Shown: positions 3,910 to 26,973, counted from the stretch's first letter. The stretch: DNA of 64,000 bases from an uncultured Planctomycetaceae bacterium (GCA_943787265.1 CALSLT010000044.1:1-64000), one strand, 5' to 3'. Made by a program: numbers and translations. Notes: a model not told the origin generated them from the letters alone.

Positions 3910-5295
<1,386 letters not shown>

Positions 5296-16441: not shown

Positions 16442-16981
16442 CTGATCGACCCGAATCCCCCGAGGTCATCTCGTCAACGTTGTGACACCTCTGGCAGTAC
16501 TTCTGAATCAGCGGTTGGACCCTTAACTGCAAAGGCGTCTTGTTCTGCGGCCTCAAGGACTCTGCTCACTAGAACTAGGGACTACCAGAAAATACAAATG
16601 AAGATTCTTCATGCTCAGGCCAGAGATTTGGTCGTGCTGATTGGAAATCGTTCGCAAGGGTCTCTATTTCTAAACGATCATCGTTTGGTGGACCACCGGA
16701 TGTTGATCTCACGAAAACTTTCAATTTCATAGAAATCGCGCGAACAAAGTCGAGTGCTCGAGCATCTAACTGCCAACCAACGCGACGAGGTCAACTGACT
16801 TCGCTGCAACAAACAAGTCAACTCATAACGAATAGTCCGGGTACAAGCACGATGATGGTTTTCAGCTTAGGTCTTATAGGCGAACAGAGTGGATCGGAAA
16901 GGTTTGCTGATCAATCAGTGAATCTGCTCCCGAGCCCCCTGCGCTTGTGACACCTGGCAAAAACCTCTCGTGTGAGAACCA

Positions 16982-17016
16982 AAGCCCGGTGTCATCCAGA
17001 CATCGGGCTTTTTTCG
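16982..17016 (+). terminator. rho-independent terminator immediately upstream of the tRNA array
   Basis: GCCCGGTG-TCATCCAGA-CATCGGGC followed by TTTTTT. Confidence 0.55.
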
Positions 17017-17100: not shown

Positions 17101-17173
17101 GGAGCGGTAGCTTAGACGGAAAAAGCGTCCGGTTGAAGCCCGGAAGAGACGGGTTCGAGCACCGTCCGCTCCA
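17101..17173 (+). tRNA. tRNA-Phe(GAA)
   Basis: Acceptor GGAGCGG/CCGCTCC, anticodon stem TCCGG/CCGGA, loop TTGAAGC, T-loop TTCGAGC. The T-stem has one mismatch. Confidence 0.7.
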
Positions 17174-17230
17174 CTTGGATGATTCGGATTCGACGAGTTC
17201 GAAGAAGCGACTCGATGGAAAACTCAATAC

Positions 17231-17303
17231 GCCCCGTTCTTCTAAAGGCTCAGGATGCTGGCCTCTCATGTCGGCGATGCAGGTTCGAATCCTGTACGGG
17301 GGT
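17231..17303 (+). tRNA. tRNA-Glu(CTC), slightly irregular
   Basis: Anticodon stem CTGGC/GTCGG, loop CTCTCAT; T-arm GCAGG-TTCGAAT-CCTGT. Position 1:72 is a G.G mismatch and the D/26 region is atypical. Confidence 0.55.
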
Positions 17304-17325
17304 ACTTTCAAAACCAAACGTACTT

Positions 17326-17401
17326 CGGGATGTAGCGTAGTCTGGCTAACGCGCCTGGTTTGGGGACCAGGAGATCGCAGGTTCAAATCCTGTCATCCCG
17401 A
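17326..17401 (+). tRNA. tRNA-Pro(TGG) variant with 8-nt anticodon loop
   Basis: Acceptor CGGGATG/CATCCCG (C1:G72, Pro-like), D-stem GCGT/ACGC, anticodon stem CCTGG/CCAGG enclosing TTTGGGGA (8 nt). Alternative fold is a 6-bp stem with a 6-nt loop. Confidence 0.55.
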
Positions 17402-17509
17402 CTGCGGCCCAGGCCGCTTTGATGCCGTGGTCAGCGGAAACGGATTACAACGCTGAGTGCGGCGAGGACGTCGTGGGCATCCAAAAGGGACGCTCATAAA
17501 ACGAAGTAG

Positions 17510-17583
17510 AGGGGTGTGGCGGAGTTGGTCACCGTGCCTGATTTGGAGTCAGGAGATCGCAGGTTCGAATCCTGTCACCCCGA
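17510..17583 (+). tRNA. tRNA-Pro(TGG)
   Basis: Anticodon stem CCTGA/TCAGG, loop TTTGGAG; D-stem GCGG/CCGT; T-arm GCAGG-TTCGAAT-CCTGT. Position 1:72 is A.G mismatched. Confidence 0.65.
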
Positions 17584-17667
17584 ATGCAGCCAAGGCTGCT
17601 TTGTTGTCGAGTTCAGCGGAATGACAAACAACACTGAAGGCGGCAAGTTCGCGAAAAGAAAAATCAT

Positions 17668-17740
17668 AGCCCGGTCGTTCAACGGTCAAGGACGCCGTCC
17701 TGATAAGGCGGAGACGAAGGTTCGACTCCTTCTCGGGCTA
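17668..17740 (+). tRNA. tRNA-Ile(GAT)
   Basis: Acceptor AGCCCGG/TCGGGCT, anticodon stem CCGTC/GGCGG, loop CTGATAA, T-arm GAAGG-TTCGACT-CCTTC. Confidence 0.8.
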
Positions 17741-17888
17741 CTGCGGCCCAGGCCGCTCTTAAGCCGTGGTCAGTGGAAACCGTAAACAACACTTACTGCG
17801 GCGAGTTCTTCTTTCCGCAAAGAAACAACTGAAAGACGAATGTCATGGCTACGTTACATCGTTTGAAACAGATACCCACCCTCAACGC

Positions 17889-17960
17889 GAGGTCGTGGTG
17901 TAACGGCAGCACATCGGTCTTTTAAACCGACCAGTGAGGGTTCGAATCCCTCCGGCCTCA
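17889..17960 (+). tRNA. tRNA-Lys(TTT)
   Basis: Acceptor GAGGTCG/CGGCCTC, D-stem GTGT/GCAC, anticodon stem TCGGT/ACCGA, loop CTTTTAA, T-arm GAGGG-TTCGAAT-CCCTC. Confidence 0.8.
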
Positions 17961-18007
17961 TTGAGCGGTGAGTCGCAACCAGCGGATACGCAAAAGCGAT
18001 TCGCCTG

Positions 18008-18079
18008 CGGCCCGTAGCTCAATGGTGAGAGCAGGCTCCTTATAAGGGCACGACGACGGTTCGAATCCGTCCGGGCCGA
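18008..18079 (+). tRNA. tRNA-Ile(TAT) candidate
   Basis: Acceptor CGGCCCG/CGGGCCG, D-stem GCTC/GAGC, anticodon stem GGCTC/GGGCA (27:43 G.A), loop CTTATAA, T-arm GACGG-TTCGAAT-CCGTC. Confidence 0.6.
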
Positions 18080-18093
18080 ATGAGAGGATCACA

Positions 18094-18339
18094 ATGAAAA
18101 CCAAACAGTACAGACAATGTCGACTTCAACGTGGCAACGCCGTTCGAGTGAGCTGGTTGCCGGCTCAATACGCAGTCGAAGGACGAGTTCTAAAGCTGCG
18201 TGACAACGACGTATGGTCAAACGGCTGGGTCGTCAAAGACGCATACAAAGAAAGCGATCGAGACGTGGCTCCTGATACTCGGCGAGCGGTCAGGAAACAT
18301 CGACAAGCCTCGGGAGACGCTCTTCCGAGGCGTGCATAA
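18094..18339 (+). CDS. hypothetical small basic protein (81 aa) inside the tRNA array
   Basis: ATG preceded by GAGAGGA at appropriate spacing. Arg/Lys-rich, no recognisable domain. Confidence 0.4.
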   Translation: MKTKQYRQCRLQRGNAVRVSWLPAQYAVEGRVLKLRDNDVWSNGWVVKDAYKESDRDVAPDTRRAVRKHRQASGDALPRRA

Positions 18340-18346
18340 CGAAGCG

Positions 18347-18419
18347 GGATCGAGGTGTTAGCGGCAGCACATCCGGCTCTTAACCGGACAGGTGAGGGTT
18401 CGAGCCCCTCCGATCCCAA
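18347..18419 (+). tRNA. tRNA-Lys(CTT)
   Basis: Acceptor GGGATCG/CGATCCC, anticodon stem TCCGG/CCGGA, loop CTCTTAA, T-arm GAGGG-TTCGAGC-CCCTC. Confidence 0.8.
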
Positions 18420-18524
18420 TTCTATTTTTACTCTCGACGCGACTCGGAAATCACCCAACTGCGATCAGGATGCGCACACACCGCACGCTCAAAAACAGTT
18501 CATCAATCATCACTCAACGAAGCA

Positions 18525-18596
18525 CTAGTCGTCCAGCGGCTAAGACACCGCACTCGTAATGCGGCAACGTGAGTTCGAGTCTCACCTGGTGCTCTA
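18525..18596 (+). tRNA. tRNA-Thr(CGT)
   Basis: Acceptor GCACTAG/CTGGTGC, anticodon stem CCGCA/TGCGG, loop CTCGTAA, T-arm GTGAG-TTCGAGT-CTCAC. D-stem pairing is weak. Confidence 0.65.
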
Positions 18597-18628
18597 ACGG
18601 TTCTTTGACAATCTGGCACTGAAATATC

Positions 18629-18699
18629 GCGCCCATGATGTAGCGGTAGCCTACCGCCTTGCCAAGGCGGAAGTGCGGGTTCAACTCCCGCTGGGCGCT
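18629..18699 (+). tRNA. tRNA-Gly(GCC)
   Basis: Acceptor GCGCCCA/TGGGCGC, D-stem GTAG/CTAC, anticodon stem CCGCC/GGCGG, loop TTGCCAA, T-arm GCGGG-TTCAACT-CCCGC. The 8-9 connector is 4 nt and position 26 is missing. Confidence 0.65.
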
Positions 18700-18884
18700 T
18701 GCAAACCGGGTGTTTGCATCGGGTGGCGTTGGCGTGTCGGGTCTGCTCCGAGGTCGGTGTTCGCACCGGGCACGTCGATGGGCTTCGGTTTGCTGAAGAG
18801 AAAATTACGCGGAACGTTCAAGCCGAATCGGTTGACGATCGCATGTCGACTTCAATCGGCTATCGATCCAAGCGTTCCGTTTGG

Positions 18885-18956
18885 TGCGGTGTGGCCAAAT
18901 GGTAAGGCAGCTCCCTGTTAAGGAGACGATTGCAGGTTCGAATCCTGCTACCGCAG
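18885..18956 (+). tRNA. tRNA-Asn(GTT)
   Basis: T1:A72 and discriminator G; anticodon stem GCTCC/GGAGA, loop CTGTTAA, T-arm GCAGG-TTCGAAT-CCTGC. Confidence 0.75.
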
Positions 18957-19019
18957 CTTGTGTGCAAGTCCAGAGTTGAGTGTCGAGTGTCCATAGATAC
19001 TGGCTGACTCTCATCTCCG

Positions 19020-19104
19020 GACTCTTTCGGAAGCCAACCGGCTGGATCAGGAGCCTGTTTCGAAAACAGGTGCGGGCGAACGTCCGTTGTGGGTTCAAGT
19101 CCCA
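19020..19104 (+). tRNA. tRNA-Ser(CGA), long variable arm
   Basis: 85 nt. Acceptor GGAAGCC/GGCTTCC, discriminator G, anticodon stem CCTGT/ACAGG, loop TTCGAAA, T-arm GTGGG-TTCAAGT-CCCAC. Confidence 0.8.
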
Positions 19105-19140
19105 CGGCTTCCGCTCTGCAGAACATCGGCCAAGAGCACT

Positions 19141-19190
19141 GTCCGTTCGATGTTCAGCGTTGGATGTTGAATGTTCGATGTTCATCACGT
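19141..19190. repeat. GATGTTCGA-type short repeat cluster (copy A)
   Basis: CGATGTTCAGCGTTGGATGTTGAATGTTCGATGTTCATC; a related palindromic cluster lies at 24937-25020. Confidence 0.6.
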
Positions 19191-19260
19191 GCCTCTGACC
19201 GAGCGGCAAAGGTACCGGGTTTCCATTCCGGACAGGCGGGTTCGACTCCCGCGAGGCACT
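19189..19260 (+). tRNA. tRNA-Gly(TCC)
   Basis: Acceptor GTGCCTC/GAGGCAC, discriminator T, anticodon stem CCGGG/TCCGG, loop TTTCCAT, T-arm GCGGG-TTCGACT-CCCGC. D-stem is weak. Confidence 0.65.
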
Positions 19261-19350
19261 CTTGAGACAGGGATCGCTAGCAGAAACACGGAACAGTAGG
19301 ACCGACGGGGCGGTGGCTGTTCCGTGTTTGCTGCGGGGAGTGATCCACTC

Positions 19351-19425
19351 TGCGGGGTAGTTTCTGCTGGTAGAAATACGCGACTTTGAATCGCGTGTCT
19401 GCAGGTTCGATTCCTGCCCCCGCAA
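19351..19425 (+). tRNA. tRNA-Gln(TTG)
   Basis: T1:A72; D-stem GTTT/AAAT; anticodon stem CGCGA/TCGCG, loop CTTTGAA; T-arm GCAGG-TTCGATT-CCTGC. Confidence 0.8.
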
Positions 19426-19495
19426 CTGCGTACGACATGGTCGGCTTGTTCGAGTTTCCGCTCGGACAAGGATCGAAAATCAATCGGAAGAGACT

Positions 19496-19566
19496 ATTGC
19501 GGGATCGTTTAACGGCAAGACACAGCGCTCTGAACGCTGAGATGTTGGTTCGAATCCAGCTCCCGT
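19496..19566 (+). tRNA. tRNA-Gln(CTG)
   Basis: Acceptor TGCGGGA/TCCCGTA, D-stem GTTT/AGAC, anticodon stem CAGCG/CGCTG, loop CTCTGAA, T-arm GTTGG-TTCGAAT-CCAGC. Confidence 0.75.
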
Positions 19567-19633
19567 AACTTCGCGTGATCGCATCGTTCGATCTGCCGCC
19601 AGGTGATCAAGTTGCGATTACACAACGACTACG

Positions 19634-19718
19634 GAAGTCATCCGGCTGGATGAGGGCTCTGTCTTGAAAACAGAGGCGGGTAAACGCCCGTTGTGGGTTC
19701 GAGGCCCACGGCTTCCGC
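19634..19718 (+). tRNA. tRNA-Ser(TGA), long variable arm
   Basis: 85 nt. Acceptor GGAAGTC/GGCTTCC, discriminator G, anticodon stem TCTGT/ACAGA, loop CTTGAAA, T-arm GTGGG-TTCGAGG-CCCAC. Confidence 0.8.
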
Positions 19719-19795
19719 CTCGGAAAGGCAGAAACCAGAAGACAGAAGGATGGATAGTTTTCAGCCTTCGGCCTTTTGATTTCAGCCTTTCACAC

Positions 19796-19868
19796 GGTCC
19801 TGTGGCCTAGCGGCGAAGGCAACTCCCTTACAAGGAGACAATCGGTGGTTCGAGTCCACCCAGGATCA
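19796..19868 (+). tRNA. tRNA-Val(TAC)
   Basis: Acceptor GGTCCTG/CAGGATC, anticodon arm ACTCC-CTTACAA-GGAGA (compare E. coli CCTCCCTTACAAGGAGG), T-arm GGTGG-TTCGAGT-CCACC. Confidence 0.75.
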
Positions 19869-19873
19869 CTTAG

Positions 19874-19943
19874 TCCCGAGTATGCCAATGGAAGAGCAGT
19901 CCGAATTGTCGGATGGTTGCAGGTTCGATTCCTGCCTCGGGGC
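19874..19943 (+). tRNA. tRNA-like gene, anticodon undetermined (degenerate)
   Basis: Good acceptor (TCCCGAG/CTCGGGG) and T-arm (GCAGG-TTCGATT-CCTGC). The anticodon arm folds only as GTCCG-AATTGT-CGGAT (6-nt loop) or with an 8-nt loop; the D-stem is unpaired. 70 nt. Confidence 0.35.
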
Positions 19944-19949
19944 CCACAC

Positions 19950-20022
19950 GGCACCGTAGCCCAACGGCAGAGGCAGTCGTTTCAAACGCAACAAAGTGTG
20001 AGTTCGAATCTCACCGGTGCCA
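19950..20022 (+). tRNA. class-I (short variable arm) tRNA with Leu anticodon CAA
   Basis: Acceptor GGCACCG/CGGTGCC, D-arm GCCC-AACGGCAG-AGGC, anticodon stem GTCGT/GCAAC (one C.A mismatch), loop TTCAAAC, variable AAAGT only, T-arm GTGAG-TTCGAAT-CTCAC. Confidence 0.5.
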
Positions 20023-20039
20023 TTCAAAACTTACAACAC

Positions 20040-20114
20040 GCCCCTGCAGAGCAGCCAGGAGTGCTCGCCATCCTGTCACGATGGAGACCGTCGGTTCGAA
20101 TCCGATCGGGGGTG
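20040..20114 (+). tRNA. tRNA-Asp(GTC)
   Basis: D-stem GAGC/GCTC, anticodon stem CCATC/GATGG, loop CTGTCAC, discriminator G, T-arm GTCGG-TTCGAAT-CCGAT. Confidence 0.8.
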
Positions 20115-20191
20115 CTTGTGAAAGGCGGAAGGATGAGGGCAGAAGGATGATTTGAATTCAGCCTTCATCCTTCTGACGTCAGCCTTCATAC

Positions 20192-20263
20192 GACGCGGTA
20201 GCCCAATGCAGAGGCAACCGGTTTAAGCCCGGTCAAGTGCGGGTTCGAGTCCCGCTCGCGTCA
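20192..20263 (+). tRNA. class-I (short variable arm) tRNA with Leu anticodon TAA
   Basis: Acceptor GACGCGG/TCGCGTC, D-arm GCCC-AATGCAG-AGGC, perfect anticodon stem ACCGG/CCGGT, loop TTTAAGC, variable CAAGT, T-arm GCGGG-TTCGAGT-CCCGC. Confidence 0.55.
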
Positions 20264-20280
20264 CTCGAAGAAATCATTGC

Positions 20281-20352
20281 GGCCCATTCGTCTAGTGGAG
20301 AGGACACCTGGTTTTCATCCAGGCAACGGGAGTTCGATTCTCCCATGGGTCA
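20281..20352 (+). tRNA. tRNA-Glu(TTC)
   Basis: TTCGTCTAGTGGAGAGGACACC D-arm as in E. coli tRNA-Glu; anticodon stem CCTGG/CCAGG, loop TTTTCAT; T-arm GGGAG-TTCGATT-CTCCC. Confidence 0.8.
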
Positions 20353-20367
20353 CTTTCGAAAATACAC

Positions 20368-20441
20368 AGCATCGTAGCCCAATTGGCAGAGGCGCCTGGT
20401 TTAGGTCCAGGAGGTTGAGAGTTCGAATCTCTCCGGTGCTA
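20368..20441 (+). tRNA. class-I (short variable arm) tRNA with Leu anticodon TAG
   Basis: Acceptor AGCATCG/CGGTGCT, D-arm GCCC-AATTGGCAG-AGGC, anticodon stem CCTGG/CCAGG, loop TTTAGGT, variable AGGTT, T-arm GAGAG-TTCGAAT-CTCTC. Confidence 0.55.
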
Positions 20442-20524
20442 CTTGAGTCAAAAGATGAGAGACCAGAGGCCAGAGGTTTTGCAGCATTCACGCTGGTCTC
20501 TGGTCTCTCGACTCTGAACTCAAT

Positions 20525-20610
20525 GGGCTTTGCTCCTCACGGCGGTCTGTAAAACCGTTGTCGGAAAACAAGTGAGGTGGTGACGAGAGGTTCAATTCCT
20601 TCAAGGCCCA
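20525..20610 (+). pseudogene. tRNA-Tyr(GTA)-like gene lacking a D-arm (aberrant or pseudo-tRNA)
   Basis: Acceptor GGGCTTT/AAGGCCC, discriminator A; anticodon stem GCGGT/ACCGT, loop CTGTAAA; long extra region; T-loop TTCAATT. Only 10 nt lie between acceptor and anticodon stem, so no D-arm can form. Confidence 0.4.
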
Positions 20611-20627
20611 ATCCAGAACGAAATCAC

Positions 20628-20710
20628 GGCCAGGTGGTGGAACGGTAGACACGCGACGCTCAGAACGTCGTGCCGCTTAAGGCATGGGAGTTCGAATCTC
20701 CCCCTGGTCA
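20628..20710 (+). tRNA. tRNA-Leu(CAG), canonical class II
   Basis: 83 nt. Acceptor GGCCAGG/CCTGGTC, discriminator A, GGTGGTGGAACGGTAGACACGC D-arm, anticodon stem CGACG/CGTCG, loop CTCAGAA, long variable arm, T-arm GGGAG-TTCGAAT-CTCCC. Confidence 0.85.
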
Positions 20711-20905
20711 TTAAAGAGTTGAAAGTAAATAGTTGATTGCTGATAGCAACTGCGAACATAGATGTCAGCAGCCGACTCCATCTCTCAACTATCGACTTTC
20801 AACCATCTACTTAATGCAGGTGTGGCAGGTGCCCAGTTGGCTCTCATAAGGCCGACCTCCCCGGATCGTTACCGGGACCTGCGACTTGCAATTTCTGATC
20901 AACAT

Positions 20906-20974
20906 CGCGGGTGGGCGAGTGCTCATCGGGGCCTCATAAGCCTCGACGGCCAGGTGCGACTCCTGGACCCGCTT
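20906..20974 (+). pseudogene. initiator tRNA-fMet(CAT)-like gene with truncated D-loop
   Basis: 5' CGCGGGTGG as in E. coli tRNA-fMet; C1 unpaired with position 72; anticodon stem GGGGC/GCCTC with three G:C pairs at 29-31:39-41; loop CTCATAA. T-arm CCAGG-TGCGACT-CCTGG has G at position 55. Only 69 nt; the D-arm is about 4-5 nt short. Confidence 0.4.
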
Positions 20975-20986
20975 CTTTCGCAACAC

Positions 20987-21062
20987 GGCCGAGTACGCAA
21001 TCAGGCAAAGCGGCGAGGTCGAGAGCCTCGTGATTTTGTGGGTTCGACTCCCACCTCGGTCA
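20987..21062 (+). tRNA. class-I tRNA-like with Leu anticodon GAG
   Basis: Acceptor GGCCGAG/CTCGGTC, anticodon stem CGAGG/CCTCG, loop TCGAGAG (C at position 33), T-arm GTGGG-TTCGACT-CCCAC. D-arm irregular. 76 nt. Confidence 0.4.
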
Positions 21063-21151
21063 CTTTGAGTTGAGAGTGGATTGTTCAGAGTCCGGAGGCT
21101 TTTCCTAAGCGGTACCTCTGGACTCTCGTCTCTCAACTCTGGTCTCAACCC

Positions 21152-21223
21152 GACTCCGTGGTCCAACGGCAACGACACCTGCGTGACATGCAGGAGACGA
21201 TGGTTCAACTCCATCCGGGGTCA
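21152..21223 (+). tRNA. tRNA-Val(GAC)
   Basis: Acceptor GACTCCG/CGGGGTC, anticodon stem CCTGC/GCAGG, loop GTGACAT, T-arm GATGG-TTCAACT-CCATC. Confidence 0.75.
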
Positions 21224-21234
21224 TTCCATTTGCC

Positions 21235-21313
21235 ATTAGTTATTTGTCATTTCTCATCGGTCATTGGGAGCCTGTTTACCGGGCAATGACAATTGAGAAA
21301 TGACAAATAACTA
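21235..21313. repeat. AT-rich 31-bp near-perfect inverted repeat (21-bp perfect core) with 17-bp loop
   Basis: TTAGTTATTTGTCATTTCTCA(TCGGTCATTG) ... (CAATGACAAT)TGAGAAATGACAAATAACTAA. About 25% GC in a 55% GC background. Confidence 0.8.
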
Positions 21314-21327
21314 ATGACAAATACTCC

Positions 21328-21398
21328 GGGCTGCTCGTCTAATGGGAAGACGCTTGGCTTGCAACCAGGTAATCGGGGTTCGACTCCCCGGCGGTCCA
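21328..21398 (+). tRNA. tRNA-Ala(TGC)
   Basis: G3.U70 Ala identity pair; D-stem GTCT/AGAC; anticodon stem CTTGG/CCAGG, loop CTTGCAA; T-arm CGGGG-TTCGACT-CCCCG. Confidence 0.85.
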
Positions 21399-21408
21399 CT
21401 TGAAGAAG

Positions 21409-21479
21409 TGGGGTCATGGTCCAATGGGACGACTCCAGCATGGCATGCTGGCAATCCGGGTTCGATTCCCGGTGACTCC
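21409..21479 (+). tRNA. tRNA-Ala(GGC)
   Basis: G3.U70; anticodon stem CCAGC/GCTGG, loop ATGGCAT; T-arm CCGGG-TTCGATT-CCCGG. Confidence 0.8.
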
Positions 21480-21495
21480 ATTCTCAAATCGATAC

Positions 21496-21583
21496 GGAAG
21501 GTAGCCGGATACGGTTTGCCGGACCGCACTGCTAATGCGTGTGCCTGTCATGGGTCATGTGGGTTCGAATCCCATGCCTTCCG
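21496..21583 (+). tRNA. tRNA-Ser(GCT), long variable arm
   Basis: 88 nt. Acceptor GGAAGGT/GCCTTCC, discriminator G, D-stem CCGG/CCGG, anticodon loop CTGCTAA, T-arm GTGGG-TTCGAAT-CCCAT. Confidence 0.8.
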
Positions 21584-21602
21584 CTCTTTGCAACAACAAT
21601 CT

Positions 21603-21674
21603 GGCTCGATGGTGAAACGGAGATCATCCCTTGCTTCTAACAAGGAGTTCCGGGTTCGATTCCTGGTCGGGCTA
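21603..21674 (+). tRNA. tRNA-Arg(TCT)
   Basis: D-stem GTGA/TCAT, perfect anticodon stem CCTTG/CAAGG, loop CTTCTAA, T-arm CCGGG-TTCGATT-CCTGG. Confidence 0.8.
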
Positions 21675-21689
21675 CTGGAGGAAAATGAA

Positions 21690-22157
21690 ATGAACTCAAC
21701 ATCTCATGTCATCGATAGTTTTGCCGGCGAGTACCGGTTTCTGTCGAACTTCTATCCGTCAACGATTTTCGTAGACGGATTCAGATATCCGACGGTCGAG
21801 CACGCGTTCCAGGCAGCGAAGACTGCTGACAGCGCTGCGAAACAGAAAATCGCAACAGTTCAATCGGCACTCCGAGCCAAGAGTCTCGGTCGTCAAGTAC
21901 GACTGAGAAAGGACTGGGAAGCGGTTAAGGTTGCCGTGATGAGGCAGTTTGTGACTCTGAAATTTGAGTCGCATCCCGATCTGGCAGAAATGCTGCTTGA
22001 TACGGGCGACGCGAAGCTCATTGAAGGCAACAGTTGGAATGATACCTACTGGGGCGTCTGCGGAGGTCGCGGAAAGAATCACCTCGGCAAAATTCTGATG
22101 GGAATCAGAACTCAGCTTCTGGTAACGAATCGTGAAACGACAGGGAGTATCGGCTAA
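21690..22157 (+). CDS. NADAR (DUF1768 / YbiA-like) domain protein
   Basis: GGAGG 8 nt upstream of ATG 21690. FAGEYRFLSNFYPSTIFVDGFRYPTVEHAFQAAKT ... WNDTYWGVCGGRGKNHLGKILMGIRTQL matches the NADAR consensus. The ORF-track N-terminus (21342) overlaps tRNAs and is rejected. Confidence 0.85.
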   Translation: MNSTSHVIDSFAGEYRFLSNFYPSTIFVDGFRYPTVEHAFQAAKTADSAAKQKIATVQSALRAKSLGRQVRLRKDWEAVKVAVMRQFVTLKFESHPDLAEMLLDTGDAKLIEGNSWNDTYWGVCGGRGKNHLGKILMGIRTQLLVTNRETTGSIG

Positions 22158-22173
22158 GCCCGCTGCTCCGACG

Positions 22174-22264
22174 GAAGGGCAACCCGATGGGCGACGGGAT
22201 CCGGTTGGAAGCCGGGCGAGTGCGTTAACGCGTGCCTTGCGGGTTCGATTCCCGCTCCTTCCGC
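22174..22264 (+). tRNA. tRNA-Ser(GGA), long variable arm
   Basis: 91 nt. Acceptor GGAAGGG/TCCTTCC, discriminator G, anticodon stem TCCGG/CCGGG, loop TTGGAAG, T-arm GCGGG-TTCGATT-CCCGC. Confidence 0.8.
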
Positions 22265-22280
22265 TGCGTGTGAGGATCCA

Positions 22281-22877
22281 ATGACTGCTTATCGACAAGT
22301 TCGAGCGAACTACGACCGGGCATCGATTGTCGTCTACCAGGCGTACAACGATGCGATTGCCGATTCAGCAATCGATGCACAGAAGTTTGTGGCTCCGTTT
22401 TCATTCAACCGAATGACCTGGATCAAGTCGTCGTTTCTGTGGCTGATGGAACGGAGCGGCTGGGCGACGAAGGCGAATCAAACTCGGATTCTGGCCATCC
22501 GAATCAGTCGGTCAGGATGGGAGCGGGCATTGTCGCAAGGAGTGTTGACGTCTTTCGAACCTAGCGTGCATCGCTCGGTCGACGCGTGGAGACTGCAGTT
22601 CGAAGCCTCGCCGGTTCACGTTCAATGGGATCCGGAAAGGTCGATTCACGGCAGGAAACTGGAGCATCGAGCGATTCAAGTCGGTATCAGCCGGCAGCTC
22701 ATCGAGGAATACGTGTCGTCGTGGATTCAGAGCATCGAAGACATGACCCAATTTGCAAACAAGGTCAGGCGAATGCGCATGGCTGGTAAACACTCTGAAG
22801 CTCGTCGGCTGCTTCCGATCGAACGGGAATACTCCGTTCAATCTGAAACCCGACGACAACTCGGAATTTCTAAATGA
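22281..22877 (+). CDS. DUF4291-like hypothetical protein (198 aa)
   Basis: GAGGAT RBS. The motif FSFNRMTWIKSSFLWLMERSGWATK resembles DUF4291-family proteins; this assignment is from memory and tentative. Confidence 0.6.
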   Translation: MTAYRQVRANYDRASIVVYQAYNDAIADSAIDAQKFVAPFSFNRMTWIKSSFLWLMERSGWATKANQTRILAIRISRSGWERALSQGVLTSFEPSVHRSVDAWRLQFEASPVHVQWDPERSIHGRKLEHRAIQVGISRQLIEEYVSSWIQSIEDMTQFANKVRRMRMAGKHSEARRLLPIEREYSVQSETRRQLGISK

Positions 22878-22971
22878 CTGACAGACTCAACCGGTCAAAC
22901 GTCCAGTCTGGAAAACCTGACGTTCGAAGTGCAACGCGTTTGCACGCAACTGGCATGAAAGGAGCTCGACG

Positions 22972-23751
22972 ATGATCACAACAAGAACTACAGACCTGCG
23001 TCGGCTCAACAGTGCGACGAAGTATCCGTCGATTGCGACGTATCACGCACTCGGAGAGAAGGGGCGGTTATTGCCAGACCATGTTGACTTGGGTGACCAG
23101 CCGTTGGTGTTGACTGAAAAAGTCGACGGTACCAATAGTCGAATTATCCTCATGCCGGACGGTGCTTACCTGATCGGGAGTCGTGAAGAGTTGCTCCACG
23201 CAAAGGGCGATCTGATTCACAACCCGGCGATGGGTATCGTCGATGCTTTGAGATCGTTCGCTGACAGTCTGGTTGAGATACGAAGTCCGGCCCCGGATGT
23301 CATCACAACGATCTATGTTGAGACTTACGGCGGCAAGACGACGGCGGCTGCAAAGCAGTACACGGGCGAGCGTCGTATCGGGTTTCGCCTGTTCGACGTA
23401 AGCATCGTGCCGATTGGGCAGATCTATTCCACACCGGAACAGATTTCGGCCTGGCGTGAATCAGGTGGGCAGAGTTTCTTCTCTGAAACTCAACTGGCTG
23501 ACTTTGCAGCGGAATCAGGCGTTGAACTGACGCCTCGAATTCAGTGCGAAAGTCAGTTGCCGGTGTCAATTTCTGAAACGCATGAGTGGCTGAAGAGTCA
23601 TCTTCCAGCAACACAGGTTGCACTGGACGAGAAGGCTGGCGGTAAGCCGGAAGGCCTCGTCGTTCGTACGGTCGATCGAAAGCGAATCGCCAAGATTCGT
23701 TTCGAAGACTACGAGCGACACGACCGACGGACTTCGAAATCAGCGCGATAA
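22972..23751 (+). CDS. ATP-dependent RNA ligase, Rnl2-like nucleotidyltransferase family
   Basis: AAAGGAG RBS. Motif I KVDGTN (TEKVDGTNSRII), motif IV EGLVVR, motif V lysine (AKIRFEDY). The N-terminal KYPSIATY block is typical of RNA-ligase adenylyltransferases. Confidence 0.8.
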   Translation: MITTRTTDLRRLNSATKYPSIATYHALGEKGRLLPDHVDLGDQPLVLTEKVDGTNSRIILMPDGAYLIGSREELLHAKGDLIHNPAMGIVDALRSFADSLVEIRSPAPDVITTIYVETYGGKTTAAAKQYTGERRIGFRLFDVSIVPIGQIYSTPEQISAWRESGGQSFFSETQLADFAAESGVELTPRIQCESQLPVSISETHEWLKSHLPATQVALDEKAGGKPEGLVVRTVDRKRIAKIRFEDYERHDRRTSKSAR

Positions 23752-23814
23752 CTTGTCGCTCAATGTTTGTCAGAGATGTACGGTCGCCGTCCGTTGTGGC
23801 GGCGACCGATTTAT

Positions 23815-23889
23815 GGTGTCCGTAGTGTAAGGGTCTTGCACGCGACTCTGTGGAAGTCGAAGAGACGGGTTCAACTCCCGCCGGACACC
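23815..23889 (+). tRNA. tRNA-His(GTG) with encoded G-1
   Basis: G-1 and discriminator C73; D-stem GTGT/GCAC; anticodon stem CGACT/AGTCG, loop CTGTGGA; T-loop TTCAACT. Confidence 0.8.
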
Positions 23890-24001
23890 CTCCACCAAAC
23901 CGAGCGTTTGGATCGGATAGCCGTTGGCGTGCATTTTCAATAAGCACGCTGAATCGGCTTGATCGATCAAAGGCGAATTAACTAAGGGAAGGAATGGTTC
24001 G

Positions 24002-24598
24002 ATGGTGGCCTCTGTTCTGGAGAGACCGACGCTTGTGCTGAATCGCAACTGGCAGCCTGTTGGCGTTGCCACGGTTGCTAAGGCACTGACGAAGGTCTGG
24101 AACAAAACGGCTCGGATTGTCGATCCGGCCGACTATCAGCAGTACTCATGGGAGAACTGGTCAGAGCTGCGTCCTGAGGACGGTGATCTGTTTATTCAGA
24201 CGAACCGGTTTCAGCTGCGGGTTCCGGAAGTGGTCACGCTGACGAAGTACGACCGACTTCCAAAGAGCGCTGTGACCTTCAGTCGAAGAAACGTTTTTAA
24301 GCGTGACAAGTTCATGTGTCAGTACTGCGGTGCTCAACCGGGCAGCGAGGAACTGACGATTGACCACGTCCTGCCGCGTGCTCAGGGAGGAACGTCCACT
24401 TGGGCTAACTGCGTGCTGGCGTGCATCGACTGCAATTCGCGGAAGGCCGACCGAACTCCGGAGCAGGCTCGGATGCCGTTGCGGTCGACGCCGGTCCGTC
24501 CAAAGTGGAAACCGGTCTACGCGTCACGCGGAATTCGTATCGAAAGCTGGTCGCGGTTCATTAGCGAAAGCTACTGGAACGCCGAACTGGAGAAGTAG
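24002..24598 (+). CDS. HNH endonuclease family protein
   Basis: C-terminal CQYCG...HVLPRAQGG...NCVLACIDCNSRKADR HNH zinc-binding motif. Confidence 0.8.
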   Translation: MVASVLERPTLVLNRNWQPVGVATVAKALTKVWNKTARIVDPADYQQYSWENWSELRPEDGDLFIQTNRFQLRVPEVVTLTKYDRLPKSAVTFSRRNVFKRDKFMCQYCGAQPGSEELTIDHVLPRAQGGTSTWANCVLACIDCNSRKADRTPEQARMPLRSTPVRPKWKPVYASRGIRIESWSRFISESYWNAELEK

Positions 24599-24679
24599 CG
24601 AAGGGGACAAGGGGTGAGCGTCAAGGGGCGAGAGCATTTAGCTCTCGACTCTGGCCTCTCGTCTCTCGACCAGAAAACA

Positions 24680-24749
24680 CAGCGGTGTGCTCCTGGGAGA
24701 GCAGACAGATTCCAAACCTGTCTCACGGGGTTCGACTCCTCGCACCGTT
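24680..24749 (+). tRNA. tRNA-Trp(CCA), irregular
   Basis: Discriminator G; D-stem GCTC/GAGC; anticodon arm GACAG-(A)TTCCAAA(C)-CTGTC with an A.C closing pair; T-arm CGGGG-TTCGACT-CCTCG. 70 nt with a 1-nt connector and 3-nt variable loop. Confidence 0.5.
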
Positions 24750-24783
24750 GCTGCGGCATGGCCGCTTTGTTTTGAGATAATTG

Positions 24784-24857
24784 CCGACGTGGCTCGATTC
24801 AGAAAGGCACCGGTCTTGTAAACCGGATGGATGTGGGTGCGAATCCCACCGTCGGCT
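24784..24857 (+). tRNA. tRNA-Thr(TGT)
   Basis: Perfect acceptor GCCGACG/CGTCGGC; anticodon stem CCGGT/ACCGG, loop CTTGTAA; T-loop TGCGAAT (G at position 55). Confidence 0.7.
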
Positions 24858-24861
24858 CTGA

Positions 24862-24933
24862 GCCCTGCGGGTGTGATGGATAGCATGGCAGTCTTCGAAA
24901 CTGTCGGACGAGGTTCGACTCCTCGGCGGGGTG
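24862..24933 (+). tRNA. tRNA-Arg(TCG)
   Basis: D-stem GTGT/GCAT; anticodon stem GCAGT/ACTGT, loop CTTCGAA; T-arm CGAGG-TTCGACT-CCTCG. Confidence 0.7.
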
Positions 24934-24936
24934 CTT

Positions 24937-25020
24937 GATGAACATCGAACATCCAACACTGAACGTCCAACATCGAATATTGGTATTCGATGTTCGTTGT
25001 TCGATGTTCAAAACGTCTTC
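24937..25020. repeat. GATGTTCGA-type repeat cluster (copy B, palindromic arrangement)
   Basis: TGAACATCGAACATCCAACACTGAACG ... ATTCGATGTTCGTTGTTCGATGTTCA. Confidence 0.6.
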
Positions 25021-25024
25021 AGAG

Positions 25025-25097
25025 TGTGGCGGATTCGCACGCGACCCTGCGAAGGTCGAGGACCAGGTTCGACTCCTGGTGAGGACACTCTTTAGTC
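25025..25097 (+). tRNA. tRNA-Arg(GCG)
   Basis: D-stem GTGT/GCAC; anticodon stem CGACC/GGTCG, loop CTGCGAA; T-arm CCAGG-TTCGACT-CCTGG. Confidence 0.7.
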
Positions 25098-25173
25098 CAG
25101 AGTCGAGGGGCAAGAGTCCAGAGGATTACTCTGGACTCTCGTCCCTCAGCTCTCGACTCCACTGACACCGATG

Positions 25174-25245
25174 CTCGATGGTCGGGCGGCTGGCTGCAAC
25201 CCAGCTTTGAGTGAGTTCGATTCTCACCGGTGTCTCTTTCATGCT
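25174..25245 (+). tRNA. tRNA-Cys(GCA)
   Basis: Perfect acceptor GACACCG/CGGTGTC, discriminator T; D-stem GCTC/GGGC; anticodon stem GCTGG/CCAGC, loop CTGCAAC; T-arm GTGAG-TTCGATT-CTCAC. Confidence 0.8.
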
Positions 25246-25339
25246 TGACTTGATGTTGTCATGACCGGCGGCGCGATTGGCTCTTTGTCAGAAGTTGGCC
25301 AGGCGTGTTCCGTGAACGGGTTCTGAACGTGACAACATC

Positions 25340-25411
25340 GAAGTGGTCGCCCAACGGTAGGGCACCAGGTTGTTAACCTGGATGTTGCGGGTTCGATTCC
25401 CGTCCACGTCT
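25340..25411 (+). tRNA. tRNA-Asn(GTT), second copy
   Basis: D-stem GCCC/GGGC; anticodon stem CCAGG/CCTGG, loop TTGTTAA; T-arm GCGGG-TTCGATT-CCCGT. Acceptor has one A.G mismatch. Confidence 0.65.
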
Positions 25412-25866
25412 CTGGTGGAAAACCAGATACTGACCGGCGCGATAGCGTCACCATTGAGCCCACGGGAGATGATTGTTTACTGAATCGGCTGCCGGTGTGT
25501 TCATGCTTGGTTTGCTCATCGCGGCGAGAGCCGCGTGTGGCGATGCCAGTTTTGACAGACATCCGGCAGCAGCATGAGTGGCGTGCCATGCAGTGTGTGG
25601 ATACCGCATTCTCGATGGCGACTTGAGCTGGTGAATCAGGGAACTCCGCTGACGCGTTCATCGTGAAGGCGGACTGACCGACGACATCAGCAAGCGTCGC
25701 TAATTCCAGCTTGCTCAAGCATCACTCCGCGCGTCGAAGTGTGATTCGTAAACGATTCATCTCCCAACGGTTTCTTTCAAGGCAGAAGGCGAAAGGATGA
25801 AGGCGAAAAACGCTTGTCTTCATCCTTCTGCCTTCTGAATTCATCCTTTCACAAAGGCGGTGGCCC

Positions 25867-26973
25867 ATGTACCCAATCAGAACAATTCGAATCCGTAGTT
25901 ACGAGATCGGTCTGCGCTTCATAGATGGAGACTTCCGTGGACTGCTCGGCGAGGGTACGCACCGACTGTTTGATCCTCTGGCAAAAACGCGAGTGGATAT
26001 CGTCTCTCGTCGCGATCCGTGGCTGCAGCACGCTGACCTCGACGTCATCGTTAAGTCCGGTGCGTTGAAGGAGCGTGCCATCGTTGTCGACCTGAAGGAT
26101 CACGAGCGAGGCCTTGTTTCGATCGATGGTCGTTTCAGCCATGTTCTTCCTCCGGGCCTGTACGCTTACTGGGTCGGTTTCAAGGATGTGCAGGTGGAAG
26201 TTGTCGATGCGCGAAACGCTCGCTTCGAACACGACCAGCTGCGAACGATTTCTCGGTCGCCGATGGTCAGCCACGTTCTGGATATTTGCACGGTCAACCG
26301 ACAGTGCATCGGCGTCCTGTTCGTGAATGGTCGCTTTGTCGACACGCTCGATCCTGGCCTGTACGCCTTCTGGAAAGGCTCCGGAGATGCGAAAGTCGTC
26401 GAAACTGATCTGCGCGAAACGATGGCCGACGTCAGCGGTCAGGAGATCATGACGTTGGACAAGGTTTCGTTGCGGATGAACGCGGTCGTCACGTACCGCA
26501 TCGTCGATCCGAAGAAGGCGGTCACGGCAACGGACGATGCTCGACAGACTCTGTACCGAGAGGTGCAGCTTGCTTTGCGAGCGGTCGTTGGTTCACGAGA
26601 ACTCGACGCGTTCCTGACCGACAAGGATGAGGTTTCGAGCGAGCTGGAAGACCTCGTTCGAAGTCGGGCGGGCGACGTGGGTCTGGAAGTGGCGTCTGTC
26701 GGGATCCGGGATGTGATTTTGCCAGGCGACATGAAGGACCTGATGAACAAAGTCACGGAGGCAAAGAAAGCCGCCGAGGCCAACCTCATCTCCCGTCGAG
26801 AGGAAACGGCAGCGATGCGAAGCCAGGCCAACACCGCCAAGGTGCTGGCCGACAACCCGACTTTGATGCGGCTTCGGGAACTGGAAGTGCTGGAGAAAAT
26901 CGCAACGACCGGCAACTTGAACGTCGTCCTCGGCGAGAAGGGCCTTGCCGACCGAGTCGTCAACTTGCTGTAA
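25867..26973 (+). CDS. SPFH / band-7 (slipin-like) domain protein
   Basis: 368 aa. A tandem duplicated N-terminal region (two similar blocks: GLYAYWVGFKDVQVEVVDAR / GLYAFWKGSGDAKVVETDLR) followed by an SPFH core and a coiled-coil tail (EAKKAAEANLISRREETAAMRSQANTAKVLAD). Confidence 0.75.
   Translation: MYPIRTIRIRSYEIGLRFIDGDFRGLLGEGTHRLFDPLAKTRVDIVSRRDPWLQHADLDVIVKSGALKERAIVVDLKDHERGLVSIDGRFSHVLPPGLYAYWVGFKDVQVEVVDARNARFEHDQLRTISRSPMVSHVLDICTVNRQCIGVLFVNGRFVDTLDPGLYAFWKGSGDAKVVETDLRETMADVSGQEIMTLDKVSLRMNAVVTYRIVDPKKAVTATDDARQTLYREVQLALRAVVGSRELDAFLTDKDEVSSELEDLVRSRAGDVGLEVASVGIRDVILPGDMKDLMNKVTEAKKAAEANLISRREETAAMRSQANTAKVLADNPTLMRLRELEVLEKIATTGNLNVVLGEKGLADRVVNLL

Follow-up and report, generated by a model that had tools for sequence, protein, structure and literature searches.

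A 64-kb window of DNA from an uncultured Planctomycetaceae bacterium (CALSLT010000044.1, positions 1-64000) contains a long array of tRNA genes, which is described here together with the leader that precedes it and the conserved block that follows it. The window is the whole stretch of planctomycete DNA that was analysed, and positions are counted from its first letter. ARAGORN finds 40 tRNA genes in it, all on the + strand at 17101-25412, and none in the remaining 56 kb; with 40 cloverleaves in 8.3 kb against none elsewhere, the clustering is far beyond what chance can account for. An earlier note on this DNA had claimed about 40 tRNA or tRNA-like genes on the same strand at 17101-25411, with a list of their anticodons; the number is exactly 40, and ARAGORN agrees with the list almost one for one. 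A tRNA array unit, or L-array, has been defined as at least 20 tRNA genes at a density of at least 2 per kb (Tran 2016, PMC4758250; Santamaria-Gomez 2021, PMC8421152). The array in the window passes both limits, having 4.8 tRNA genes per kb (40 in 8.31 kb), and it shows other marks of L-arrays: the genes lie on one strand, their spacing would allow co-transcription, and their arrangement is non-periodic. No tandem periodicity was seen in the array, where the only internal similarities are those of tRNA arms and spacer hairpins. The spacers range from 3 to 266 nt, and protein genes occupy three larger gaps.

The array tRNAs cover 19-20 amino acids. Thirty of the 40 genes score at or above the gathering score of the Rfam tRNA model (RF00005). 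With relaxed Rfam filters, the Asp gene scores 45.4 bits, also above the gathering score, and Arg(gcg) 28.2 bits. The four class-II Ser genes, Trp and a gene called only as 'tt' match the tRNA-Sec model alone, at sub-threshold scores, and the two Met(cat) genes have no match to the Rfam tRNA model. None of the array genes encodes CCA, as the earlier note had said, and the trailers are mostly N73-C-U. However, this does not mark the array as foreign, because dispersed planctomycete tRNAs have the same N73-C-U trailers. The noncanonical members reported in the note are real: 1:72 mismatches occur in Glu(ctc), Pro(tgg) and Met 20906, loops are odd, with tiny D-loops in Met(cat), and the predicted Tyr-like gene, with anticodon GTA and a degenerate look, is present. 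The repeated spacer hairpins are there as well, those of the GCGGCCCAGGCCGC type being found 3' of tRNAs at ~17403, 17586, 17743 and 24753.

The array is a conserved feature of its locus. Relatives were gathered by a protein scan with the SPFH/Band-7 gene product encoded downstream of the array, one genome per species, and the best 80 of 247 relatives (67-86% identical) were compared; most of these 80 have the array, a tRNA-like element called X, or both, upstream of Band-7. In 27 of the 80 loci, at least 10 tRNA genes stand directly 5' of Band-7 in the order of the window. The shared order is Phe, Glu, Pro, Ile, Lys, Ile(tat), Lys, Thr, Gly, Asn, Ser, Gly, Gln, Gln, Ser, Val, Leu, Asp, Leu, Glu, Leu, followed by Tyr, Leu(cag), Met, Leu(gag), Val, Thr, Ala, Ala, Ser, Arg, Ser, His, an HNH endonuclease gene, Trp, Thr, Arg, Arg, Cys and X. 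The longest common subsequence (LCS) with the window comprises 14-29 genes, against 6-9 for shuffled order (z = 7-17; 18 arrays with at least 20 genes). The array lies between a conserved leader and a block consisting of tRNA-Cys, X, a structured RNA and Band-7. Because genes past Band-7 are common to the closest relatives only, the conserved unit is the array plus Band-7 and not a larger syntenic block. Two carriers are cultured, Adhaeretor mobilis (HG15A2) and Bythopirellula polymerisocia (Pla144) of the Lacipirellulaceae, order Pirellulales; the others include many metagenome-assembled genomes (MAGs) labelled Planctomycetaceae or Pirellulaceae, and a Thalassoglobus genome (Planctomycetales) has an array remnant only. 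About 40 loci have at least 8.6 kb of upstream sequence. Of these, 16 have at least 23 tRNAs, 3 have 12-16, 19 have 1-5 and 2 have none. Comparison of the loci indicates that in other lineages the array has decayed or is gone, and its absences look like decay in place, since tRNA-Cys and X are retained. The same locus and order are found in more than 25 Planctomycetia genomes, which is not the sprinkled distribution, with horizontal transfer, that is associated with L-arrays. By its position and order the array looks vertically inherited and anciently fixed, and not like a recent insertion.

Judged by its composition and genes, the host DNA is planctomycete chromosome, not phage or an island. 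G+C is flat, 0.53-0.56 across the array and 0.52-0.58 elsewhere in the window. Upstream, the flank has genes of the PSCyt/PSD, DUF1501 and DUF1552 families, and downstream it has SPFH/Band-7 and rbfA. No integrase, transposase or phage structural gene was found among the flanking genes examined, and no long direct repeats flank the array. Prophages, integrative and conjugative elements and islands are recognized by a recombinase, phage or conjugation genes, direct repeats and deviant composition, and the locus does not have this combination. None of 50,697 phage records matched the array in a megablast search, and a scan of IMG/VR with the HNH protein returned homologues of at most 44% identity, none of them in tRNA arrays. 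One MAG (CAXBME01) has two Band-7 loci, on contigs 5 and 74 (L006 and L008), with an array at each, and this is either a true duplication or a two-strain mixture in the bin; two diverged clusters in one isolate were described by Kim et al. (PMC4807772). Independent assemblies of apparently the same species (metagenome contigs L002-L005, with an identical Band-7 protein) break in or just after the array, 263-1264 nt 5' of Band-7, which suggests assembly trouble or strain variation at the array.

Several observations indicate that the array tRNAs are under selection. Compensatory changes were found in 10 of 15 predicted pairs of Leu(caa) (20 orthologues) and in 11 of 23 of Met(cat) (12 orthologues). 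Anticodons are retained slot by slot across genomes whose Band-7 proteins are only ~70% identical; the loop of element X, by comparison, varies freely. Identity elements, judged against the established E. coli identity rules, fit the anticodons: both Ala genes have G3:U70, His has G-1/C73, Ser has G73 and long arms, and all five Leu genes have A73, while Cys and Gly have U73 and Trp, Asp and Asn have G73. By these signs, the array tRNAs are neither random cloverleaves nor freely drifting pseudogenes.

The array differs from the dispersed tRNAs of planctomycetes. The median Rfam score of its genes is 55 bits; that of a dispersed comparison set, which consists of seven tRNAs from the flanks of relatives, is 68 (61-74; Mann-Whitney p = 1.4e-4). 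L006 has one Val(gac) in its array and a dispersed one 7 kb from it, and the two differ in the acceptor and D arm; its array copy is nearly identical to that of the window. In relatives, dispersed tRNAs are found next to arrays, some of them duplicating array anticodons. The tRNA totals of Lacipirellulaceae are bimodal, being either 47-58 or 68-91. Pla144, with a 32-gene array, has 78 tRNAs as against 47-58 in array-poor relatives, and array-carrying cultured relatives have ~30 tRNAs more than those without the array. From these relatives, the source genome having been seen only within the 64 kb, we infer that the array duplicates rather than replaces a dispersed set. Ile(UAU) and Cys are likely exceptions, that is, unique rather than duplicate copies. 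One candidate for a within-genome comparison, a supposedly dispersed class-II Leu(gag) at L067:19543-19629, was dropped, as it has the look of an ARAGORN false positive, with no Rfam match and no T-loop.

The leader was found by aligning the sequence 5' of the first tRNA. A regular expression identified it in 22 loci, two doubtful matches being set aside, and a profile search found it 5' of the first tRNA in ~26 loci, small clusters included. Loci reduced to Cys and X do not have it. In 19 of 20 loci, an ATG open reading frame (ORF) of 31-49 codons ends exactly at an invariant TGA, which is part of a TGAC that is invariant in 20 loci. The distance from the first of four RNA segments (Table 1) to the TGA takes ten lengths, 72-141 nt, and can be divided by 3 in 13 of the 19 loci; indels in multiples of 3 argue for translation of the leader ORF. 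The consensus of the leader peptide is MxxLRxS...AN...LRL. The leader has no Rfam match.

The four segments allow the alternative pairings 1:2, 2:3 and 3:4, the last being a predicted intrinsic terminator before tRNA-Phe. The helix of segments 2 and 3 (A:B) is 91% paired, as against 25-42% when slid, and has 5 compensatory cells (20 loci). The terminator helix is 96.7% paired in the same number of loci, with compensatory changes in 4 pairs and 13 cells, and none of 500 shuffles was as good. The mean energies of the nascent 2:3 hairpin (-19.5 kcal/mol) and of the terminator (-21.1 kcal/mol) are near-equal. In minimum-energy folds of 19 full leaders, segment 2 pairs upstream in 17, with ORF codons ~5-10 in ~14, while 3:4 forms; the leader of the window folds with z = -7.4. 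From the U-tract to tRNA-Phe there are only 3 nt in L019 and L075 and 19-35 nt in nine more of the 22 loci. Since the terminator in these 11 loci is so near the first tRNA that it leaves no room for a separate promoter, the array there would be transcribed by read-through only. In silico, the leader has what is expected of a trp-type attenuator in that a short leader ORF is present, the pairings 1:2, 2:3 and 3:4 are mutually exclusive, and 3:4 is an intrinsic terminator. From this four-segment architecture we infer trp-type attenuation, in which stalled ribosomes would switch the operon on. In the literature searched, no leader-peptide control of any tRNA array was found.

About 90-120 nt 5' of the start of the leader ORF, a motif GCGTCTAAAC or GCATCTAAC recurs; the copy in the window is GAGCATCTAAC at ~16755-16765, and L006, L035, L060, L067, L054 and L075 have it at matching positions. 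The operon might have its promoter or transcription start here. A scan for sigma-70-type promoters returned fewer sites than in shuffled sequences and none before the array, and is uninformative for planctomycetes.

Table 1. Features of the tRNA array locus, with positions in the 64-kb window
Feature	Position	Strand	Basis or remark
Leader ORF, 32 codons + TGA, MMVFSLGLIGEQSGSERFADQSVNLLPSPLRL then stop	16852..16950	+	ATG ORF conserved in relatives
Predicted attenuator segment 1	~16866-16884, leader ORF codons ~7-9	+	Pairs with segment 2 in minimum-energy fold
Predicted attenuator segment 2 (arm A, CTTGTGACACCTGGC)	16944..16958	+	Holds stop TGA 16948-16950; pairs with segment 1 or 3
Predicted segments 3 + 4, intrinsic terminator hairpin AAAGCCCGGTGTC / GACATCGGGCTTT	16981..17014 (hairpin 16981-17011, then six T)	+	Terminator scan
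Block of 32 tRNA genes, first half in order: Phe gaa, Glu ctc, Pro-like tggg, Pro tgg, Ile gat, Lys ttt, Ile tat, Lys ctt, Thr cgt, Gly gcc, Asn gtt, Ser cga, Gly tcc, Gln ttg, Gln ctg, Ser tga	17101..21675 (whole block)	+	ARAGORN, Rfam, structure/identity table, colinearity
Same block, second half: Val tac, '??? tt', Leu caa, Asp gtc, Leu taa, Glu ttc, Leu tag, Leu cag, Met cat x2, Leu gag, Val gac, Ala tgc, Ala ggc, Ser gct, Arg tct	17101..21675 (whole block)	+	
tRNA-Pro-like gene, 8-nt anticodon loop UUUGGGGA	17326..17402	+	ARAGORN; 61.5 Rfam bits; acceptor stem perfect, C1-G72, A73
tRNA-Ile(UAU), canonical-looking	18008..18079	+	64.1 Rfam bits, joint second-highest in array; acceptor stem perfect
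81-aa basic ORF, no family match	18094..18339	+	Between Ile(tat) and Lys(ctt); no Pfam-type match
'tt' tRNA-like gene, 6-nt anticodon loop	19874..19946	+	ARAGORN, tRNA-Sec model, structure table
Class-I-sized tRNA-Leu(caa), 73 nt, A73	19950..20022	+	ARAGORN, structure table
Further short tRNA-Leu genes, A73	taa 20192-20264, tag 20368-20442, gag 20987-21063	+	
Tyr-like gene, class II, anticodon GTA, degenerate-looking	20524..20610	+	26.1 bits with tRNA-Sec model; fold; missed by ARAGORN
Two tRNA-Met(cat)-like genes, 70-71 nt	20815-20885, 20906-20975	+	4-bp D-stem, 4-5-nt D-loop, atypical T-loops
NADAR-domain protein, 155 aa	21690..22157	+	PF08719 111 bits; phrog_1017 158 bits
tRNA-Ser(gga), class II	22173..22264	+	ARAGORN, relaxed Rfam, structure table
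DUF4291 protein, 198 aa	22281..22877	+	PF14124 234 bits
RNA-ligase-family protein, 259 aa	22972..23751	+	PF09414 47.5 bits; phrog_548 'RNA ligase'
tRNA-His(gtg), encoded G-1, C73	23816..23890	+	ARAGORN, structure table
HNH endonuclease, 198 aa	24002..24598	+	PF01844
Trp cca, Thr tgt, Arg tcg, Arg gcg	24681..25088	+	ARAGORN, relaxed Rfam, structure table
tRNA-Cys(gca), U73	25164..25236	+	Part of conserved core unit
Element X, tRNA-like, ARAGORN 'Asn gtt'	25340..25412	+	Profile search, alignment
Structured RNA, ~350 nt	25416..25779	+	Closing helix 25464-25486 / 25743-25765, then U-rich tail
SPFH/Band-7 gene, conserved locus anchor	25867..26973	+	PF01145; context gene

The HNH endonuclease is a conserved core gene of the array. 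It occupies the slot between His and Trp in ~24 loci, where it is 63-87% identical to the copy in the window. Mean pairwise identity is 72% for HNH and 75% for Band-7 (21 loci), and their distance matrices are correlated (Mantel r = 0.56; none of 2000 permutations as high). That HNH is as conserved as Band-7 is not what a decaying selfish homing endonuclease would show. The HNH locus beside the Anabaena trn operon on pCC7120delta, all8564 in the literature, encodes a protein with 30% identity over 97% coverage (E = 4e-19). Four phages (Synechococcus phage S-CBWM1, Tunturiibacter phage Tunturi_5, Arthrobacter phage Mimi and Myxococcus phage Mx1) have homologues surrounded by tRNA or RNA-repair genes, Atu_ph07 has one close to an RNA ligase, and homologues on Nostoc plasmids lie among tRNA genes. 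Matches in the PDB are limited to the generic HNH domain of IscB, Cas9 and group II intron proteins. PADLOC gave no convincing defence-system membership.

Four other ORFs lie inside the array on the same strand, making five with HNH: the 81-aa ORF and the NADAR, DUF4291 and RNA-ligase-family genes. In the closest relative, L006, an ORF 49% identical to the 81-aa ORF occupies the same slot (4977-5219). NADAR and RNA ligase were found only in the window and in a conspecific metagenome contig (L001), and DUF4291 also inside the arrays of L018 and L051. The HNH, NADAR and RNA-ligase families are phage-rich, NADAR and the ligase falling in phage protein families; a PDB sequence search with the ligase gave no useful relative. 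DUF4291 has a predicted ADP-ribosyltransferase-like fold, and its neighbourhoods include RNA 2'-phosphotransferase Tpt1, Macro and NUDIX (PMC12522546). From these family assignments, a role of the NADAR/DUF4291/ligase cassette in RNA healing and sealing, tied to ADP-ribose or 2'-phosphate, is plausible.

At the 3' end of the array, tRNA-Cys is kept 5' of X and Band-7 even in array-less genomes. The planctomycete rows listed in Table S3 of Kim et al. have one tRNA-Cys each (PMC4807772), and the tRNA-Cys(gca) of the window is probably the only one of its genome. A single tRNA-Cys that is retained after loss of the array points to a housekeeping gene. A profile search found X in 59 loci, ~360-830 nt (mostly 400-560) 5' of Band-7. 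An alignment of 59 distinct sequences shows conserved and covarying D, anticodon and T arms, 16 sequences being compensatory at the loop-closing pair. There is almost no constraint on the 7-nt anticodon loop, only three acceptor pairs are conserved, and a subset of the sequences ends in ACCA. Depending on the genome (L006-L085), the anticodon of X reads as Asn, Gln, Lys, Ser, His(atg), Ile, Met, Leu, Gly, Phe and more. X is probably a structural tRNA mimic rather than a decoder.

The structured RNA that follows X folds with z = -5.8 in the window, and 42 of its 55 predicted pairs have compensatory changes (40 loci). Its conserved sequence blocks are GGCAGCAC, TGCAGTGCGTGGATACCGC, GCTCAAGC..CACTCCGC and GTGTGATC. 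The interval 25416-25779 has no Rfam match at E <= 1, and it is a candidate either for a new RNA family or for a long Band-7 leader. A T-box reading, prompted by a UGGAUACCGC motif and the adjoining X, was rejected: there is no Rfam match, and no segment or column is complementary to the variable loop of X, the best column reaching 6/38.

Several tRNAs of the array are unusual. Genes with an 8-nt 'cggg' anticodon loop, like the Pro-like gene of the window, recur in L014 (4597-4689) and L075 (4479-4554); the window gene, whose body is otherwise canonical and whose acceptor features are of the Pro type, resembles the sufA/sufB +1 frameshift-suppressor tRNAs. Ile(tat) is kept at its slot in 9 arrays. 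The 'tt' gene, with its 6-nt anticodon loop, is probably a pseudogene, and L015 has a similar 'tt' call after Val(tac), with a gap between. At the slot of the Tyr-like gene, ARAGORN calls Tyr(gta) in relatives. The four short tRNA-Leu genes span 73-77 nt. Such class-I-like tRNA-Leu genes, with a short variable region and A73, are kept across planctomycete arrays, and short tRNA-Leu genes occur also in the Anabaena L-array (L086, 4326-4862) and in phage Mx1. A short class-I-like tRNA-Leu is a possible hallmark of array-type tRNA sets. The spacers contain long low-complexity hairpins at 18967-19000, 19723-19794, 20116-20190, 20443-20523, 21067-21148, 21228-21322, 24939-25010, 25094-25158 and 25783-25854. 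Hairpin repeats such as TCATCCTTCTGCC and CTCTGGACTCTCG have 8 of 11 and 10 of 12 of their matches within the 64-kb window in the array region. The spacers are much tighter in closer relatives such as L006.

In surveys, Planctomycetes are one of the phyla in which long arrays occur. The array that has been studied in Anabaena is silent, is induced by translational stress, and is regulated by the TrcR repressor acting on promoter repeats; 23 of its 26 tRNAs are charged, and its HNH neighbour is co-regulated (PMC8421152, PMC10272220). This trn operon of Anabaena/Nostoc sp. PCC 7120 (plasmid delta) resembles the array of the window in being a long one-strand run of supernumerary, partly atypical tRNAs with short tRNA-Leu and a linked, homologous HNH locus, and RNA-repair genes are found near such arrays. 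A linked HNH homing-endonuclease gene, such as cyanobacterial arrays have, is among the features by which L-arrays are recognized, and the array of the window has one. However, the two arrays differ in gene order, for which the LCS is no better than shuffled (z = 0.9), and in position and control. The Anabaena array is plasmid-borne and sprinkled in distribution, which has been attributed to horizontal transfer, whereas the array described here is chromosomal, fixed in place and colinear across many genera. The one is under the TrcR repressor and the other would be under a leader-ORF attenuator. HNH lies upstream of the Anabaena array but inside that of the window.

Planctomycetes were earlier found to have degenerate tRNA clusters with low Cove scores, in which a canonical Ile(UAU) is embedded (Kim et al. 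2016, PMC4807772, S2 Text). Those clusters have 2-28 genes, weak similarity and disrupted synteny, and horizontal transfer was inferred (PMC4807772). The array of the window comes from the same phylum and likewise has lower covariance scores and an embedded canonical tRNA-Ile(UAU). Unlike those clusters, it has 40 genes, and across more than 25 genomes it shows strong colinearity, the Band-7 anchor, HNH and the leader. In the tRNA clusters of phages (for example S-CBWM1, Tunturi_5, Mimi, Mx1), homologous HNH genes stand amid the tRNAs as they do here, and so do genes for RNA ligase, CCA-adding enzyme or peptidyl-tRNA hydrolase. In contrast to these, the window has no phage structural or replication genes, the gene order is unrelated, and HNH identity is at most 44%. 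A shared gene-order ancestry with the Anabaena or S-CBWM1 arrays was rejected, since LCS values are no better than shuffled. The leader, for its part, resembles the trp, his and pheA leaders and antibiotic-sensing leaders (toiL, PMC12121999) in its short ORF, four segments, stop codon in or beside segment 2, and terminator with U-tract. Unlike in those attenuators, the regulated genes are for tRNAs instead of biosynthetic or resistance proteins, and there is no evident run of one regulatory codon, so that the signal may be general elongation stress. The array thus fits the known kind of L-array or degenerate tRNA cluster; what appears new, from the comparison of loci, is the conserved leader with its predicted attenuator and the long-term fixed position.

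Taken together, we give a probability of about 55% to the reading that the window holds a chromosomal L-array, a second and divergent set of ~40 tRNAs that is ancient, gated by its leader, and present beside dispersed housekeeping tRNAs. Transcription would start 5' of the 32-codon leader ORF. Under healthy translation, or when no ribosome loads, the terminator would form and the operon would be off. A ribosome stalled in the leader, owing perhaps to shortage or damage of tRNA or to ribosome inhibitors, would favor the 2:3 pairing, and RNA polymerase could then read through into the tRNA genes. The long precursor would be cut into tRNAs, CCA being added post-transcriptionally, and the extra tRNAs would restore or buffer decoding, to which the NADAR/DUF4291/ligase cassette may add RNA repair in this lineage. 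By analogy with Anabaena, the planctomycete array would be stress-induced. A further proposal, which we make only tentatively, is that this is a vertically kept emergency tRNA operon of Planctomycetia gated by ribosome stalling, that it would step in with spare tRNAs, and in this lineage with RNA-repair enzymes, once the housekeeping tRNAs are depleted or cleaved, that it would provide the first cis-acting translation sensor of a tRNA array, and that X with the structured RNA would form a new class of noncoding RNA with a tRNA-shaped domain.

A number of points weigh against the leader-gated second set. Several members look defective, namely the Tyr-like gene, the gene with the 6-nt loop, and those with 1:72 mismatches. 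Redundancy with dispersed tRNAs is deduced from relatives, and that the array tRNAs would be charged as in Anabaena is, for planctomycetes, an analogy. The attenuator is a prediction from sequence analysis: covariation of the antiterminator is modest (2 pairs, 5 cells), conservation of the leader peptide largely coincides with the RNA helices, and segment 1 has no conserved run of regulatory codons such as a trp-type attenuator should have. In the window itself, the 86 nt between the terminator and tRNA-Phe leave room for a promoter, and tRNA-Cys, if essential as it probably is, would need expression that is independent of the attenuator. Most of the array is gone in about half of the relatives. 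The Spearman correlation between HNH and Band-7 is only 0.16, so that deep co-divergence is weak, and transfer among planctomycetes into the Band-7 site may have occurred. The taxon labels of the MAGs are those with which they were deposited.

Some of these points could be accounted for if the array were a decaying relic, an old insertion drifting to pseudogenes of which only Ile(UAU) and Cys still function while the terminator silences the rest. Array scores do fall below those of dispersed tRNAs, some members are degenerate, 19 of the ~40 loci with enough upstream sequence keep 1-5 tRNAs only, and planctomycete clusters have been called degenerate and possibly dispensable (PMC4807772). However, compensatory changes maintain the stems even of the oddest members, and anticodon order and identity elements are kept at a divergence (~70% identity) at which X shows what an unconstrained loop looks like. 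HNH is as conserved as Band-7, and the elaborate, apparently translated leader accompanies the array where the array is kept and is missing where it has been lost. A relic is thus unlikely. The patchy distribution and the weak deep correlation of HNH and Band-7 would also suit a mobile or phage-derived island that spreads among planctomycetes and lands repeatedly beside tRNA-Cys, possibly aided by HNH. Genes for tRNAs are classic integration sites. The phage-rich families of HNH, NADAR and RNA ligase and the HNH homologues among tRNA genes in phages and on Nostoc plasmids agree with such an island, and the literature argues for horizontal transfer of L-arrays. The earlier note had proposed an acquired array of the kind found in phages and mobile elements. 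Its accessory character is borne out, as the set is near-complete, diverged (55 vs 68 bits), in relatives extra to a baseline of ~47-58 tRNAs, and accompanied by phage-rich families. The acquisition as an island is not: G+C is flat, the region examined has no integrase, transposase, phage structural genes or long flanking repeats, and no counterpart was found by megablast against phage records or in IMG/VR, where the best HNH is 44% identical and outside arrays. The gene order is unrelated to the arrays of Anabaena (z = 0.9) and S-CBWM1 (z = -1.1), close relatives co-diverge (Mantel r = 0.56), and position and order are the same in relatives. These results make an island quite unlikely.

Two other readings concern the function of the array and of its leader. 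The module upstream could be an independent small-protein gene with its own terminator, the array being transcribed from unrecognised promoters or by constitutive leak-through. The ORF is indeed conserved as a peptide, the window has its 86 nt between terminator and tRNA-Phe, and planctomycete promoters are too poorly known for the sigma-70-type scan to be informative. Such a gene would not explain why the stop codon always falls in the segment that pairs with both an ORF-internal segment and the 5' arm of the terminator, with covariation and near-equal energies, why the terminator comes to 3 nt from the first tRNA in L019 and L075, or why the module is present only where tRNAs follow. We regard this reading as improbable. 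It is more improbable still that the array is the primary housekeeping operon, the main tRNA set of the cell, as in the rRNA-linked arrays of Firmicutes, in spite of its covering 19-20 amino acids, the lack of other tRNA genes in the window, and the probably unique Cys and Ile(UAU). In relatives, canonical dispersed tRNAs with higher scores lie a few kb off, and some of them repeat array anticodons; in many relatives the locus persists without the array; the tRNA total goes up by as many genes as the array has; a terminator stands directly before the first tRNA; and class-I-sized Leu and atypical Met genes are unlike housekeeping tRNAs. The earlier note had held that an array conserved as the only tRNA set of related genomes would be an ordinary core locus; the array is indeed conserved, yet not as the sole set.

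Long tRNA arrays are widespread and their purpose is debated, the sole functional model being that of Anabaena, whose array serves as a backup that stress induces and a protein repressor controls. The locus described here is of interest for tRNA identity and RNA biology because of its class-I-shaped Leu, its Pro with an 8-nt loop, X, and the unclassified structured RNA. If gating by a leader peptide is true, the status of translation would be wired to the supply of spare tRNAs, and Adhaeretor mobilis HG15A2 and Bythopirellula polymerisocia Pla144 would be cultured carriers of a simple, testable switch. It would also mean that L-arrays can be selectively kept for very long periods, and are not transient transferred cargo.

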